Shown: in pieces, positions 215-3,725 of the stretch
Position numbering within the stretch: position 1 is the first letter of the stretch
How the letters are laid out: every line of letters begins with the position of its first letter
Source of the DNA: a virus
Taxonomy: Duplodnaviria; Heunggongvirae; Uroviricota; Caudoviricetes
Reading direction: 5' to 3' (one strand)
Virus record (IMG/VR): IMGVR_UViG_2529292721_000007
Coordinates: 1 to 4,790 of that record
DNA length: 4,790 nucleotides
Notes under the pieces: generated by a model
What the model saw: the letters and a program-made list of their open reading frames with translations, nothing else
The model's database searches: none
What the model was told of the DNA's origin: nothing
Made by a program: the position numbers and the translations under genes

Positions 215-580
215 ATGACTGAACGCATAGAATTTGTTTTGCCTTACCCGCCAACGGTGAACACTTACTGGCGACGTCGTGGCAGCACATATTTTGTATC
301 AAAAGCCGGTGAGCGTTATCGCCGTGATGTGGCGCTTATTGTTCGCCAGCAGCGGCTGAAATTAAACCTGTCCGGAAGGCTGGTGATAAAGATTATTGCA
401 GAGCCACCGGATAAACGTCGTCGTGACCTGGACAATATCCTGAAAGCACCACTGGATGCGCTGACGCATGCCGGACTTCTCATAGACGACGAGCAGTTTG
501 ATGAAATCAATATTGTGCGCGGTCAGCGCGTTCCTGGGGGGCGGCTGGGCGTGAAGATTTACAAAATTGAGAGTGAGTGA
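215..580 (+). CDS. rusA: Crossover junction endodeoxyribonuclease RusA (Holliday junction resolvase)
   Basis: 121-aa ORF whose ATG at 215 directly abuts the upstream stop (TGAATG). Contains RRRDLDN and LIDDEQ acidic motifs matching the RusA Asp active-site pattern. Size and position (before Q) are typical of lambdoid rusA. Confidence 0.85.
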   Translation: MTERIEFVLPYPPTVNTYWRRRGSTYFVSKAGERYRRDVALIVRQQRLKLNLSGRLVIKIIAEPPDKRRRDLDNILKAPLDALTHAGLLIDDEQFDEINIVRGQRVPGGRLGVKIYKIESE

Positions 581-588
581 TCGTAAAT

Positions 589-1131
589 ATGATATACCCG
601 GAAATTACAGGCAAAAGCGGCGAGCATTTACGTCTAAAAACGCTGGAAGCCGTCTGGATCCAGGGGAAATTACGGATGTGGGGGCGTTGGTCGTATATAG
701 GTGGTGGCAAACCAGGAAATATGTTCAATCAGTTGCTGGCATCCAAAAAACTGACAAAAACCGCAATCAATGAAGCCCTGCGTAGAATCAGGGAGTCAGG
801 GATTGATAAACCAGAGCTGGAAGCATTCTTGCGAGAGATGATCGCTGGCAGACAGAAGAGCTGGTTGTCTCACTGTACTGATGCAGAGGCGTTACGCATT
901 GATGGGGTGATAAGTAAAGCGCTTGCACGTTATCCTGGATTGATTGATATCCTGCGGCAAAGGTACGAAGGGCGGGGGATGAGTAAACGCAAAATGGCTG
1001 AATTGTTGAATGAGGTTCACCCTGAGTGGTGCTATGCAACATGCCGCAATCGTATAGATATGTGGCTGAGAATAGCTGAGTTTATTCTGTATCCACTGAT
1101 GCGAGATGCATTTTCTTTTACTGACGCTTAG
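589..1131 (+). CDS. Putative late-gene antiterminator, Q-like
   Basis: Roughly 180-aa ORF overlapping or abutting the rusA stop. Start is ambiguous: ATG at 589 or GTG at 577, both with weak SD, so translational coupling to rusA is likely. Contains LRMWGRW, reminiscent of the WG-W motif in Q-family proteins. Lies immediately upstream of a promoter-terminator interval and late genes, the canonical Q position. Confidence 0.6.
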   Translation: MIYPEITGKSGEHLRLKTLEAVWIQGKLRMWGRWSYIGGGKPGNMFNQLLASKKLTKTAINEALRRIRESGIDKPELEAFLREMIAGRQKSWLSHCTDAEALRIDGVISKALARYPGLIDILRQRYEGRGMSKRKMAELLNEVHPEWCYATCRNRIDMWLRIAEFILYPLMRDAFSFTDA

Positions 1132-1151
1132 AATCTGGAGGGCGTTTGTTG

Positions 1152-1229
1152 TTGCACGAAGAGGATTTTTGGCTGGTAGTAAGGTTTGTGCAGTTTTAGA
1201 AAAAAAGCTTGTATTTTTAGCCATAAACT
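1152..1229 (+). promoter_or_regulatory. Candidate late promoter (pR'-like) and Q-utilisation region
   Basis: AT-rich interval between the Q stop and a strong intrinsic terminator. Candidate hexamers are TTGCAC (1152-1157) with TAGTAA (1177-1182) at a 19-bp spacer, and a TG-TATTTT extended -10-like element at 1210-1217. The exact -35/-10 and start site cannot be fixed by eye. Confidence 0.3.
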
Positions 1230-1293
1230 GTTTCAATCCAGCTACGCTTCGCAAAGCTGTACCGCGAGGCGAATAGCAGACATGGACACCTGA

Positions 1294-1320
1294 AAGAACC
1301 CGCTTTATGCGGGTTTTTTT
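1294..1320 (+). terminator. Rho-independent terminator (tR'-like) ending the short late leader transcript
   Basis: AACCCGC (1297-1303), loop TTTAT, GCGGGTT (1309-1315), followed by a T-run through 1320. Classic GC stem plus U-tract immediately downstream of the Q gene. Confidence 0.8.
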
Positions 1321-1443
1321 ATGCCTGAAAAACGGCACAGAACATTAAACGCGCTGGTAGTTGTGAATACTGGTCTTTCAGCTTGCTGGCTTTTTCGACA
1401 AGAGGTATTGGTATGTCACGTTAACCAGAAAAGGGAAAAAGGC

Positions 1444-1641
1444 ATGCTAAAACAGCAGGATATGACCGAAACCGCCAGAGTGGTGTTTAATGAATTAAGC
1501 GTCACCGAACCGGCGACCGTCGGGGAAATTGCGCAGAATACTTACCTTTCACGCGAACGCTGCCAGTTAATACTGACTCAGCTTGTTATGGCGGGTCTGG
1601 CAGATTATCAGTTCGGTTGTTACAGACGCCTTCCGCAGTGA
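1444..1641 (+). CDS. Small (65-aa) putative winged-helix / HTH DNA-binding protein
   Basis: The six-frame ORF 1321..1641 is trimmed to ATG 1444, which has an AAGGGA SD 7 nt upstream (1431-1436); ATG 1321 sits inside the terminator T-run with no SD. Segment ATVGEIAQNTYLSRERCQLILTQLVMAGL has a helix-turn-helix character. Function unknown. Confidence 0.5.
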   Translation: MLKQQDMTETARVVFNELSVTEPATVGEIAQNTYLSRERCQLILTQLVMAGLADYQFGCYRRLPQ

Positions 1642-1667
1642 AGGCTTTTTAATTTGTGGTAATGGGC

Positions 1668-1698
1668 GGCTGGTGGGTGTTAGCGGCACCTGCCAGCC
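1668..1698 (+). promoter_or_regulatory. Imperfect 12-bp inverted repeat (candidate operator or RNA hairpin) between the HTH gene and the methyltransferase gene
   Basis: GGCTGGTGGGTG (1668-1679), 7-nt spacer TTAGCGG, CACCTGCCAGCC (1687-1698). Ten of 12 positions are Watson-Crick complementary; the other two are adjacent G/T pairs, which would be G-U pairs in RNA. No U-tract follows. Confidence 0.35.
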
Positions 1699-1791
1699 AT
1701 CTGCTCATGCGTTGGGGTCACAAGCAAACCTCAGGCCCATCTGCTTTGCGCAAAAGCGGTATGAGCCTATCAGAGAAGTGCTTATTGATCT

Positions 1792-2841
1792 ATGATTAAT
1801 ACTGTAAAAATATCCAGTTGTGAGTTAATCAACGCTGATTGCCTGGAGTTTATCCAGACCTTACCGGAAAACTCTGTCGATCTGATAGTCACAGACCCGC
1901 CATACTTTAAAGTGAAGCCCGAGGGCTGGGATAACCAGTGGGAGGGCGACGATGATTACCTGAAATGGCTGGACCAGTGTCTGGCGCAGTTCTGGCGGGT
2001 ACTGAAGCCTGCCGGAAGTCTTTACCTGTTCTGTGGTCATCGCCTGGCATCTGACACCGAAATCATGATGCGTGAGCGCTTTAATGTGCTGAACCACATT
2101 ATCTGGGCGAAGCCGTCCGGACGCTGGAACGGGTGCAATAAGGAAAGTCTGCGGGCGTATTTTCCGGCAACAGAGCGCATTCTGTTTGCAGAACATTATC
2201 AGGGACCGTATCGCCCGAAAGATGATGGCTATGTGGCACAGGGGCGCGAGCTAAAACAGCACGTCATGGCCCCGCTGATTTCTTACTTTCGTGATGCGCG
2301 TAAATCACTGGGAATAACGTCAAAACAGATAGCGGAAGCCACCGGAAAGAAAAACATGGCTTCGCACTGGTTTGGTACCAGTCAGTGGCAGTTACCGAAC
2401 GAGGGTGATTACAACAAATTGCAGGCGTTGTTTGCGCGTGTTGCGGCAGAAAAACATCAGCGCGGGGAACTGGAAAAGCCACACCACCAGCTGGTCAGCA
2501 CATACAGTGAGCTGAACCGGCAGTATACGGAACTGCTGAGTGAATATAAAAATTTGCGGCGGTATTTCGGTGTGACGGCGCAGGTTCCGTACACCGATGT
2601 CTGGACGCATAAACCGGTGCAGTACTATCCAGGGAAACATCCGTGCGAAAAACCGGCAGAAATGCTGCAGCAGATAATCAACGCGAGCAGTCGTCCGGGA
2701 GACCTGGTTGCAGATTTTTTTATGGGTTCAGGTTCAACGGTAAAAGCGGCGATGGCACTGGGGCGTTGTGCGATTGGTGTTGAGCTGGAGACCGGACGTT
2801 TTGAACAGACAGTCAGGGAAGTTCAGGATTTAATCGTTTGA
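1792..2841 (+). CDS. Orphan DNA methyltransferase, beta-class (circularly permuted), probably N6-adenine-specific
   Basis: 349-aa ORF. Motif IV DPPY at aa 35-38 (nt 1894-1905) near the N-terminus; AdoMet-binding motif I FMGSGS at aa 310-315 (nt 2719-2736) near the C-terminus, with a long putative target-recognition region between. This IV-then-I order defines beta-class amino-MTases. No restriction endonuclease candidate is adjacent. Confidence 0.85.
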   Translation: MINTVKISSCELINADCLEFIQTLPENSVDLIVTDPPYFKVKPEGWDNQWEGDDDYLKWLDQCLAQFWRVLKPAGSLYLFCGHRLASDTEIMMRERFNVLNHIIWAKPSGRWNGCNKESLRAYFPATERILFAEHYQGPYRPKDDGYVAQGRELKQHVMAPLISYFRDARKSLGITSKQIAEATGKKNMASHWFGTSQWQLPNEGDYNKLQALFARVAAEKHQRGELEKPHHQLVSTYSELNRQYTELLSEYKNLRRYFGVTAQVPYTDVWTHKPVQYYPGKHPCEKPAEMLQQIINASSRPGDLVADFFMGSGSTVKAAMALGRCAIGVELETGRFEQTVREVQDLIV

Positions 2842-2852
2842 AACGGATGAGA

Positions 2853-2881
2853 TTGCAGAATTAATTACGCACCATTATTAT
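2853..2881 (+). promoter_or_regulatory. Candidate sigma70 promoter for the tRNA cluster
   Basis: TTGCAG (2853-2858), 17-bp spacer, TATTAT (2876-2881). The predicted start falls a few nt upstream of the first tRNA 5' end at 2891. Confidence 0.5.
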
Positions 2882-2890
2882 TCTGCTCCC

Positions 2891-2966
2891 GGCCCTTTAG
2901 CTCAGTGGTGAGAGCGAGCGACTCATAATCGCCAGGTCGCTGGTTCAAATCCAGCAAGGGCCACCA
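2891..2966 (+). tRNA. ileZ: tRNA with CAT anticodon, ileX/ileZ-like (tRNA-Ile2, lysidine-type); tRNA-Met cannot be formally excluded from sequence alone
   Basis: Cloverleaf read by hand: acceptor GGCCCTT/AAGGGCC, D-arm GCTC-AGTGGTGA-GAGC, anticodon loop CTCATAA (CAT), T-arm GCTGG-TTCAAAT-CCAGC, discriminator A, encoded CCA. Closely resembles E. coli ileX as recalled. Confidence 0.8.
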
Positions 2967-2973
2967 TCACATA

Positions 2974-3050
2974 CCGCCATTAGCTCATCAGGATAGAGCG
3001 CCAGCCTTCGAAGCTGGTTGCGCGGGGTTCGAGTCCTCGATGGCGGTCCA
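2974..3050 (+). tRNA. argN: tRNA-Arg (anticodon TCG)
   Basis: Acceptor CCGCCAT/ATGGCGG (C1-G72), D-arm GCTC-ATCAGGATA-GAGC, anticodon stem CCAGC/GCTGG with loop CTTCGAA (TCG), T-arm CGGGG-TTCGAGT-CCTCG, discriminator T, encoded CCA. Confidence 0.75.
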
Positions 3051-3063
3051 TTATCTGTACCCT

Positions 3064-3140
3064 GCGTTGTTAGCTCAGCCGGACAGAGCAATTGCCTTCT
3101 AAGCAATCGGTCACTGGTTCGAATCCAGTACAACGCGCCA
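3064..3140 (+). tRNA. argO: tRNA-Arg (anticodon TCT, reads rare AGA/AGG codons)
   Basis: Acceptor GCGTTGT/ACAACGC, D-arm GCTC-AGCCGGACA-GAGC, anticodon stem ATTGC/GCAAT with loop CTTCTAA (TCT), T-arm ACTGG-TTCGAAT-CCAGT, discriminator G, encoded CCA. Confidence 0.8.
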
Positions 3141-3281
3141 CGCTTATTTTTCCAGGCTCGCTACGGCGGGTCTTTTTCATATCCGCGTCACGTCAGGCGC
3201 ACATCAAACAAACACAGAATCTTTCAGGGGGCGGGATAGTCAGTGTGACGTTCTCTGGGGGCCTGTCACTTCCGGGGATAG

Positions 3282-3303
3282 GTGTTTTTACGGGCTGCTG
3301 GTG
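3282..3303 (+). terminator. Weak hairpin plus T-tract just upstream of the lysis-gene RBS (possible attenuator or partial terminator)
   Basis: GGGC (3282-3285), 8-nt loop, GCCC (3294-3297), then TTTTTT (3298-3303). The stem is short, so termination efficiency is probably low. Confidence 0.25.
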
Positions 3304-3332
3304 GCCCTTTTTTATTTACAGGAGAAAGAAGT

Positions 3333-3725
3333 ATGTCTGAACCCTTATCCGGTTCCGGTACGGCTGCGGCGCTCGGCGGGGCGACGGTATTCGGGCTGTT
3401 TACCGGAATGGATTTCGGGATTGTGTTTGGCGCGTTCGCCGGGGCGTTATTTGTGGCAACGATGCCACAGTCACTTTCAGTCTGGCGCGTGGTGGCACAT
3501 TTTCTGGTGTCGTTTATTGTCGGCGTGCTGGGAGCGCGTGTGCTGTCAGCCTGGATTGCATCAAAAACAGGGTATGACGGTACATCAGCAGATGCGCTTT
3601 GCGCGGTGCTGGTCTCGGTGGTGTCGGTGAAGATTCTCTCGTTCATCCACCAGCAGGATATTGCATCGCTGGTGTCCGGTGTGTTCTCCCGCCTGCGGGG
3701 TGGAGGAGGCGGCAATGTTAAGTAA
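3333..3725 (+). CDS. Putative holin or lysis-associated membrane protein (130 aa, Gly/Ala-rich, three or four predicted transmembrane segments)
   Basis: ATG 3333 is preceded by a strong AGGAG SD (3321-3325). Hydrophobic stretches AAALGGATVFGLFTG, IVFGAFAGALFVATM, VVAHFLVSFIVGVLGARVL and ALCAVLVSVVSVKILSFI. First gene of a three-gene overlapped cassette ending in an endolysin. The antisense ORF 3266..3715 is judged spurious. Confidence 0.55.
   Translation: MSEPLSGSGTAAALGGATVFGLFTGMDFGIVFGAFAGALFVATMPQSLSVWRVVAHFLVSFIVGVLGARVLSAWIASKTGYDGTSADALCAVLVSVVSVKILSFIHQQDIASLVSGVFSRLRGGGGGNVK

Follow-up and report, generated by a model that had tools for sequence, protein, structure and literature searches.

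A short inverted repeat lies upstream of a DNA methyltransferase gene in the first 4,790 nucleotides (nt) of the IMG/VR virus record IMGVR_UViG_2529292721_000007 (Caudoviricetes), the whole stretch of DNA that we have analysed and that is referred to here as the window. We propose that this repeat (positions 1668-1698) is the apical stem, H1, of a structured 5' leader RNA and that this leader sets or switches the translation of the methyltransferase. From the comparison of sequences, we give this reading a probability of about 0.6.

The inverted repeat is beyond chance expectation. An earlier annotation, drawn from the letters of the window (the original prediction), had placed here a 12-bp inverted repeat with a 7-nt spacer, and both the sequence and a repeat finder return it at exactly these positions. 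As was also claimed, the arms are complementary as DNA at 10 of their 12 positions, the two exceptions being U-G and G-U pairs in the RNA of the + strand. Its location between a putative helix-turn-helix (HTH) gene and the methyltransferase gene was right as well, although the spacings need a slight correction: 26 nt (not 27) separate the repeat from the stop codon of the HTH gene and 93 nt (not about 95) from the ATG at 1792. In the list of open reading frames (ORFs), the methyltransferase ORF has no in-frame start further upstream than this ATG. Folding reproduces the predicted hairpin and does so in a strand-specific manner, the 31-mer of the + strand folding at -23.2 kcal/mol (z = -4.64, none of 200 shuffles being as good) and the complementary strand at only -15.9 kcal/mol. 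Two more wobble pairs lengthen H1 to 14 pairs with a loop of 3 nt. It is the sole 31-nt stretch on the + strand of the window that folds at such stability, and 20 shuffles of the whole window, with dinucleotides preserved, yielded no 31-nt hairpin of equal stability. The absence of a U-tract after the stem had been noticed before and is confirmed (the downstream ATCTGCTC carries no T-run). We have ruled out H1 as an intrinsic terminator: AUCUGCUC after the stem contains no U-run and the terminator scan does not report it.

H1 is one helix of a conserved leader of about 135 nt that extends from about 1655 to 1794 and ends at the methyltransferase start. Our comparison covers 53 distinct versions of this leader, with Escherichia at one end of the range and Proteus and Morganella at the other. 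Four helices, P1, H1, P4 and P3 (Table 1), are common to the minimum-energy fold of the window and to the structure worked out by hand from the alignment. H1 stacks on P1 over a 4-nt bulge, and the two form a long, irregular hairpin of about 18 pairs (-29.3 kcal/mol, z = -3.75). The 5' strand of P1, AUGGGC (1662-1667), has an alternative partner in the GCCCA at 1735-1739, both in an RNAalifold prediction and in constrained folds. In the conserved fold the start region is paired within P4, which covers 1779-1790 and ends one nucleotide 5' of the AUG. No Shine-Dalgarno sequence of the GGAGG type precedes the methyltransferase AUG within 1779-1791. The UGAUC at 1786-1790 is almost invariant across the versions; we take it to be complementary to the GAUCA located just 5' of the anti-Shine-Dalgarno core of the 16S ribosomal RNA (rRNA), and its distance to the AUG is suitable. 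At the DNA level this segment contains a nearly invariant GATC (1787-1790), placed 2 nt ahead of the methyltransferase ATG, and its partner at 1716-1719 reads GGTC or GATC. If the methyltransferase were Dam-like, its own start region would carry the target site of the enzyme.

Homologues of the leader are found in phages of Escherichia coli and Shigella (phiP27, Shiga toxin 2 (Stx2) phages, SfV, cdtI, mEp460, LLS and Eeyore), in phages of Citrobacter, Klebsiella and Morganella, and in prophages of Escherichia albertii, Salmonella, Enterobacter, Klebsiella, Kluyvera, Citrobacter, Buttiauxella, Mangrovibacter, Rosenbergiella, Morganella and Proteus. Of 5,426 complete E. coli genomes searched by blastn, 2,884 have the leader, and a single genome may carry as many as 8 copies; all the E. 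coli matches listed overlap a gene annotated as DNA methyltransferase and carry no RNA annotation. A scan of IMG/VR returned only close relatives (>= 90% protein identity), informative about association but of little diversity, and found the leader in 78 of 79 loci with the methyltransferase gene, the remaining locus having only 33 nt of upstream sequence. The leader is also better conserved than the gene that follows it. Mean identity is 80.7% over the 130-nt leader versus 72.9% over the first 600 nt of the methyltransferase coding sequence, and in 284 of 300 pairs drawn at random the leader had the higher identity. We considered and rejected a conserved protein-coding sequence in the leader: the ORF that opens at the AUG at 1662 ends variably, and the loops carry indels of one or two bases.

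A simpler leader occurs in Xenorhabdus and Photorhabdus (loci L055-L081), about 80-100 nt upstream of the methyltransferase start and without P3. It has a hairpin at the equivalent position, which is often terminator-like in having a T-run behind it. The two conserved loop segments directly adjoin each other in Photorhabdus (AACCAGAG).

A covariance model was built from the closed-state structure (the four helices named above), and the 53 versions were realigned to it. In this fold 93.7% of the alignment cells form standard pairs, and 13 pairs have both of their sides changed; shuffles gave 6.5 +/- 1.5, none of 500 reaching 13, a statistic that ignores phylogeny, and controls in which the partners were slid by 1-3 columns gave 2-10 such pairs. 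H1 contributes most, with 96.5% of its cells paired and 6 of its 12 pairs compensated by double changes; the arms that the original prediction had proposed to compare do pair across relatives. P4 (90.2% paired) and P3 (91.8%) have four and three pairs changed on both sides, respectively, while P1 is paired in 97.8% of cells and its changes are all one-sided (G-U/G-C or U-A/U-G). The arms of the Proteus versions (GACUGUAAAAGUG with CACCUUUACAGUC, and GACAGUGAGGAUG with CAUCCCCGCUGUC) show this most clearly, being unrelated to those of E. coli, yet complementary to each other. G-U pairs are frequent: 39 of 53 versions have at least one within H1, and the whole alignment has 153 G-U cells, with the result that pairing drops from 93.7% on the + strand to 86.5% when the alignment is read on the - strand. 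The compensatory changes in H1, taken together with the strand specificity of the G-U pairs, indicate that what has been maintained is an RNA on the sense strand and not a DNA operator. The two arms diverge unequally (9 distinct left arms versus 18 distinct right arms), and a bulged base is common in the right one. On these grounds it is very probable that the H1 hairpin belongs to a functional RNA leader.

How such a leader could act is suggested by a helix that competes with those of the conserved fold. Read on the + strand as part of the late transcript, the leader would have a closed and an open state. In the closed state, AUGGGC at 1662-1667 would pair with GCUCAU at 1703-1708 beneath H1, giving the P1-H1 hairpin with its -29.3 kcal/mol, and P4 would enclose P3 and pair the UGAUC one nucleotide before the AUG, shutting the ribosome-binding region. 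In the open state, 1702-1709 would pair instead with 1719-1726 (P2alt), displacing both P1 and P4 and leaving the start region single-stranded. The inverted repeat would then work as a lock: as long as P1 and H1 are intact, they would hold the strand that is able to open the start site. P1 might be opened by a ribosome translating the short ORF from AUG 1662, by RNase III cleaving the long hairpin, or by the binding of a protein or a small molecule. From the comparative data it appears probable that translation is controlled by sequestering the start region, and nearly every segment of the leader having two alternative partners would explain its unusual sequence conservation.

P2alt is mutually exclusive with P1 and P4, and the alignment was built on a model that did not contain it. 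It nevertheless has a covariation score of 0.220, versus 0.086 +/- 0.010 in shuffles (0 of 500). One of its pairs (alignment columns 51-75) is found as four pair types (C-G 23, U-A 12, A-U 9 and U-G 3), and the base at this position covaries with its P2alt partner, not with its P4 partner. In Morganella, Proteus and Enterobacteriaceae bacterium G50 (locus L039), both strands of P2alt are altered at several positions, with four to seven pairs kept. The minimum-energy folds of the window correspond to the closed state, and constrained folds put the open state on average 2.3 kcal/mol above it. In these constrained folds of the open state, AUGGGC pairs with the invariant GCCCA at the base of P3, which creates a three-way junction and leaves the start region free. 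The long-range UGGGC-GCCCA pair was also predicted by RNAalifold from a plain MAFFT alignment, not fitted to any structure, and we have kept it as part of the open state. A genuine two-state switch, whose interconversion in the cell we infer, falls somewhat short of an even bet.

Several points weigh against a leader that controls translation in this way. The alignment was fitted to the closed-state model, which inflates the pair counts, and the sequences are related to each other, Morganella and Proteus being the main ones among the few lineages to which many of the compensations trace. The changes in P1 are all one-sided and compatible with wobble pairing, none of them a double compensation, and GCCCA, the alternative partner of AUGGGC, is invariant and thus beyond any covariation test. 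In most versions from Enterobacteriaceae P2alt is weak (four pairs, a 2x2 internal loop and two pairs), and its equilibrium probability in RNAalifold is zero, the closed state being dominant. The role of UGAUC as ribosome-binding site is likewise something that we infer, from a partial match to the 3' end of the 16S rRNA. It is possible that a static structure, which damps translation or stabilises the messenger RNA (mRNA), explains most of the data equally well.

The original prediction had offered, as one use of the hairpin in RNA, a translational attenuator. The direction of this proposal stands, covariation being in favour of an RNA hairpin, while the hairpin does not stand alone; it is the 5' domain of the leader, and the 3' domain pairs the ribosome-binding region. 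Plausibly, as it also suggested, the methyltransferase may be tuned in its expression apart from the other genes of the late operon. The version from Enterobacteriaceae bacterium G50 (1375-1515 of its locus) has no P4 3' strand, a different start region and a stronger competing helix (UUACCCGU with ACGGGCAA). P2alt is strengthened in the Morganellaceae as well. The G50 version may be one that is naturally always open, or else differently wired.

Among the alternatives, one would dispense with the switch altogether. The P1-H1 hairpin could be a site for RNase III or another nuclease, or a protective 5' hairpin for the part of the transcript that carries the methyltransferase and transfer RNA (tRNA) genes. 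Phages lambda and T7 use RNase III hairpins in their leaders, and P1-H1 is long, irregular, very stable and conserved as a structure; furthermore, tRNA genes, which require processing, lie 3' of the methyltransferase gene. Such a role leaves unexplained why the 3' domain, with its pairing of the start region, is conserved and why P2alt covaries, and we regard it as rather unlikely to be the whole function of the hairpin.

A related possibility is that the leader is actuated by a ribosome, in the manner of the erm and cat genes. Translation of the ORF starting at AUG 1662 would melt P1 and H1, P2alt would form and the methyltransferase start would open. This AUG and the six codons that follow it are present in all 53 versions, preceded, much as at a weak ribosome-binding site, by UGUG and then by an A-rich spacer that differs in length. 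A ribosome initiating at 1662 would disrupt P1 or, in the longer versions, P4, whatever the length of the ORF. The logic of pairing 1:2, 2:3 and 3:4 segments is also supported. Yet AUG 1662 lacks a canonical Shine-Dalgarno sequence and is itself paired in P1, neither the position of the stop nor the peptide past residue 7 is conserved, and the stem by itself fully explains the conservation of the first codons. Moreover, in Xenorhabdus, among the distant relatives, the sequence here reads AUG-UAG or AUA. The ORF measures 3, 7, 13-21, 32-33, 38, 43 or more than 46 codons depending on the version; a mini-ORF MGGWWVL-stop is found in 19 of 53 (24 of 53 counting variants by a single residue), whereas in the window the ORF continues beyond the methyltransferase start codon. 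All in all, attenuation by a translating ribosome seems to us improbable.

The leader could also be a riboswitch-like or protein-binding aptamer, in which a metabolite (for example one linked to methylation) or a protein of the phage or host would shift the balance between the closed and open states. The unpaired segments AACC, UAYCAGAG and GUGUU are very highly conserved, the two mutually exclusive folds have similar energies, the open state has a three-way junction in constrained folds, and the leader is tied exclusively to one class of genes. No Rfam family matches it, the known S-adenosylmethionine (SAM) and S-adenosylhomocysteine (SAH) classes included, a single gene family downstream gives no clue to a ligand, and the conserved loops may be strands with two alternative partners. 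This leaves the aptamer with a low probability.

A very different explanation of the repeat concerns DNA. An exact Chi octamer, GCTGGTGG, which had escaped the original prediction, lies at 1669-1676 on the + strand, within the left arm of H1. The left arm could have been kept for this signal, which switches RecBCD from degradation to recombination, the hairpin being secondary. Chi is retained in 43 of 53 versions, and the left arm is the less variable of the two. The gene order from Q through the methyltransferase to lysis on the + strand would put the cos-proximal right end downstream, as in lambda (the packaging site is outside the window), and a RecBCD complex entering from there would meet Chi from its 3' side, the orientation described as active (PMC12315714). 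The same work reports that lambdoid phages, including LLS (our locus L015), have many Chi sites in active orientation clustered at the right end. Like the site described here, these are exact GCTGGTGG octamers on the top strand of the late right-end region; unlike our case, Chi is treated there as a DNA signal, neither the hairpin nor the leader described here is mentioned, and the words hairpin, methyltransferase and intergenic do not occur in the text (PMC12315714). In the 53 loci Chi is also more frequent outside the leader on the + strand (119) than on the - strand (41), although these are homologous and not independent sites.

Breakpoints of mosaic homology cluster at the hairpin, at or next to Chi. 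In PhiR5_1 (L012, about position 1560) homology ends 3-4 nt 3' of Chi and the phage has no right arm. In phiSTEC1575-Stx2k (L011, 1516-1581) P1 and H1 are kept, with two C-to-T changes that give G-U pairs, and are followed by a different gene. In Eeyore and LLS (L014 and L015, about position 1196) homology starts just before AUGGGC, equivalent to about 1661 in the window.

Against Chi as the reason for the repeat, the conservation of the other roughly 125 nt of the leader, the compensatory changes in the right arm and the intact hairpins that lack Chi (in Eeyore, a metagenome-assembled genome labelled Geobacteraceae (L021), Rosenbergiella, Buttiauxella and Proteus) are all left unexplained. 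Some asymmetry between the arms is expected anyway, a G/U-rich arm tolerating changes in its partner by wobble pairing, and the window carries two Chi sites on each strand. A natural GCTGGAGG variant also occurs. We find it quite unlikely that Chi accounts for the repeat; because it covers only 8 of about 135 conserved bases, it is possibly a second, DNA-level use of the stem. As side observations, the second + strand Chi (3297-3304) is inside a terminator-like hairpin at 3292-3307 (GGGCTGCTGGTGGCCC, then TTTTTTATTT) just upstream of a holin gene, and those of the - strand, at 2484 and 3647, are both within coding sequence. In frame with AUG 1662 (stretch 1662-1685), the Chi core encodes tandem Trp codons (UGG UGG). 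The most far-reaching combination, that of an undescribed bistable RNA switch (actuated by ligand, protein or ribosome) gating orphan phage DNA methyltransferases across the Enterobacterales, with a stem dual-coded as a Chi in active orientation, is a tentative idea that we consider unlikely.

The weakest alternative is the operator proposed in the original prediction, in which the near-palindrome would bind a dimer of the 65-aa HTH protein and control methyltransferase transcription in the manner of controller (C) proteins. C-boxes are symmetric DNA sites located upstream of the C gene, inside its promoter. The resemblance lies in the small HTH-like gene next to a methyltransferase gene (found directly 5' of the leader in 40 of 53 versions) and in the nearby inverted repeat, with arms 10/12 complementary as DNA. 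However, in the other 13 versions the 80 nt upstream hold no homologue of the 65-aa ORF while hairpin and leader are intact, the arms are asymmetric in their conservation (9 versus 18 variants, the right one often bulged), the G-U pairs of 39 versions are mismatches in a DNA palindrome (C-A on the other strand), and the Proteus arms are wholly different with pairing retained. Placement upstream of the regulator gene in a promoter, symmetric half-sites and co-occurrence with the regulator, by which a C-box operator is recognised, are not what we found: the repeat lies 3' of the HTH gene, has evolved in the manner of an RNA stem containing G-U pairs and is still present where that gene is missing, and a scan of the + strand from 1100 to 3350 gave no promoter-like site, the gap between the HTH and methyltransferase genes included. 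Even the HTH assignment is below the Pfam cut-off (TrmB, 18 bits against 25.6), and the ORF otherwise matches PHROG 331, of unknown function. An operator is therefore not supported, and we consider it hardly credible.

Table 1. Features of the window, in positions of the window.
Feature	Positions	Strand	Remarks
RusA resolvase gene	215-580		
Q-type antiterminator gene	577-1131		DUF1133 and weak Phage_antitermQ match
Terminator hairpin	1293-1319		
65-aa winged-helix-like ORF (HTH gene of the original prediction)	1444-1641	+	Stop codon 1639-1641
Terminator-like hairpin GCCTTC-CGCAGT-GAAGGC, then TTTTTAATTT	1628-1655	+	Terminator scan; overlaps stop codon of the 65-aa ORF
Conserved UGUG, then short A-rich spacer of 1-4 nt	1655-1661	+	5' edge of the leader; alignments
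P1 5' strand AUGGGC	1662-1667	+	Invariant in 53/53 versions; pairs with 1703-1708; AUG of short variable ORF
H1 left arm GGCTGGTGGGTG	1668-1679	+	Sequence read and repeat finder
H1 loop TTAGCGG, 7 nt	1680-1686	+	Relatives differ in length and sequence (UUAGCGG, UUGUAG, UUGGUAG, others)
H1 right arm CACCTGCCAGCC	1687-1698	+	Sequence read and repeat finder
4-nt bulge AUCU, then P1 3' strand GCUCAU (1703-1708)	1699-1709	+	1702-1709 doubles as P2alt 5' strand
P4 5' strand GGUCACAAGCA	1716-1726	+	Pairs with 1779-1790; 1719-1726 alternatively with 1702-1709 (P2alt)
Internal-loop segment AACC(nn), conserved	1727-1732	+	Alignments
P3 hairpin AGGCCCAUCUGCUUU-GCGC-AAAAGCGGUAUGAGCCU	1733-1768	+	Minimum-energy folds; enclosed by P4
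Internal-loop segment, conserved UAYCAGAG and variable linker	1769-1778	+	Alignments
P4 3' strand UGCUUAUUGAUC	1779-1791	+	Includes UGAUC 1786-1790, one nt before AUG
N6/N4-type DNA methyltransferase gene	1792-2841	+	Pfam PF01555, E = 2.1e-44; PHROG DNA methyltransferase families
Three tRNA genes	2891-3140		3' of the methyltransferase gene
Two holin-family genes and GH108 lysin gene			End of the feature order, after the tRNA genes

The genes of the window and their order are those of a late-control region in a lambdoid prophage (Table 1). Its closest phage records are phiP27 and several Stx2-converting phages, with identical gene order. The three tRNA genes are a CAT (Met according to ARAGORN, the phiP27 homologue being annotated as ileZ), an Arg-TCG and an Arg-TCT, a trio also found upstream of stx in Stx phages, and three terminator-like hairpins lie between it and the lysis genes. 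Between Q and the first terminator, at 1217-1322, there are below-threshold Rfam matches to isrK (21.6 bits) and AgrB (27.1 bits), compatible with a short leader RNA of the late promoter as in other lambdoid prophages. Closer to the leader, the hairpin at 1628-1655 has counterparts of variable sequence at the same place in related loci, even in those without the 65-aa ORF, and it may belong to the leader module. We also considered the TGTG-(A)n-AT at the 5' side of the leader as an extended -10 promoter and dropped it; the spacing varies and the key A at position 2 is mostly missing.

The leader appears to be a previously undescribed cis-regulatory mRNA leader. A scan of the whole window against Rfam 15 gave no match within 1640-1800 at E <= 1, and the segment 1600-1830 alone gave only chance-level matches at E <= 10 (E 1.6-6.8, 12-15 bits). 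In the open-access full texts searched, its sequence is printed nowhere and no leader is described for the methyltransferase gene; two papers on the discovery of non-coding RNAs do not describe it either. The prophage small RNA svsR is unrelated, being located at cI. A link of the window's gene pair to the Stx-phage methyltransferase M.ECPA8_3172P/PNB-2 (gp5/gp6) could not be established; there, the small partner gene is numbered after the methyltransferase gene (bioRxiv 10.1101/2023.09.20.558713).

The proposed mechanism has parallels in several known systems. With riboswitch expression platforms the leader would share a conserved multi-helix architecture, a covarying competing helix and control at the ribosome-binding site; unlike them, it has no Rfam match and its gene context suggests no ligand. 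Alternative mRNA structures reportedly control the translation of cIII in phage lambda (work of Altuvia, Oppenheim and colleagues, 1989-1991). There too the start region of a phage mRNA has two exclusive folds that occlude or expose the ribosome-binding site, with RNase III as a possible effector, but we see no homology in sequence or architecture, and here about 135 nt and four helices are involved, all upstream of the start codon. In the erm and cat leaders, the ribosome-binding site is hidden when segments 1:2 and 3:4 are paired and becomes accessible through 2:3 pairing, with a short ORF overlapping segment 1. The same four-segment logic would operate here before a methyltransferase gene, also with a short ORF over segment 1. 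The differences are that this ORF has no clear Shine-Dalgarno sequence, conserved stop or conserved peptide, and that the gene encodes a DNA methyltransferase rather than an rRNA methyltransferase, with no inducing antibiotic implied.

If our reading is correct, more than half of the complete E. coli genomes, often in several copies and Stx phages included, would contain a structured RNA that has so far gone unannotated. This leader would govern the timing or amount of a phage DNA methyltransferase, an enzyme that affects the protection of phage DNA from restriction and possibly the epigenetics of the host. It is a compact and tractable candidate two-state RNA provided with natural variants: stems without Chi, versions without P3 and one without the sequestering strand. 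The overlap with Chi and the breakpoints at the stem make it a candidate test case for constraints on DNA and RNA sharing the same bases, and also for where the mosaic junctions of lambdoid phages form. Were the dual-coded version true, a single short element would be at once an RNA regulator, a signal to RecBCD and a junction of mosaic recombination.

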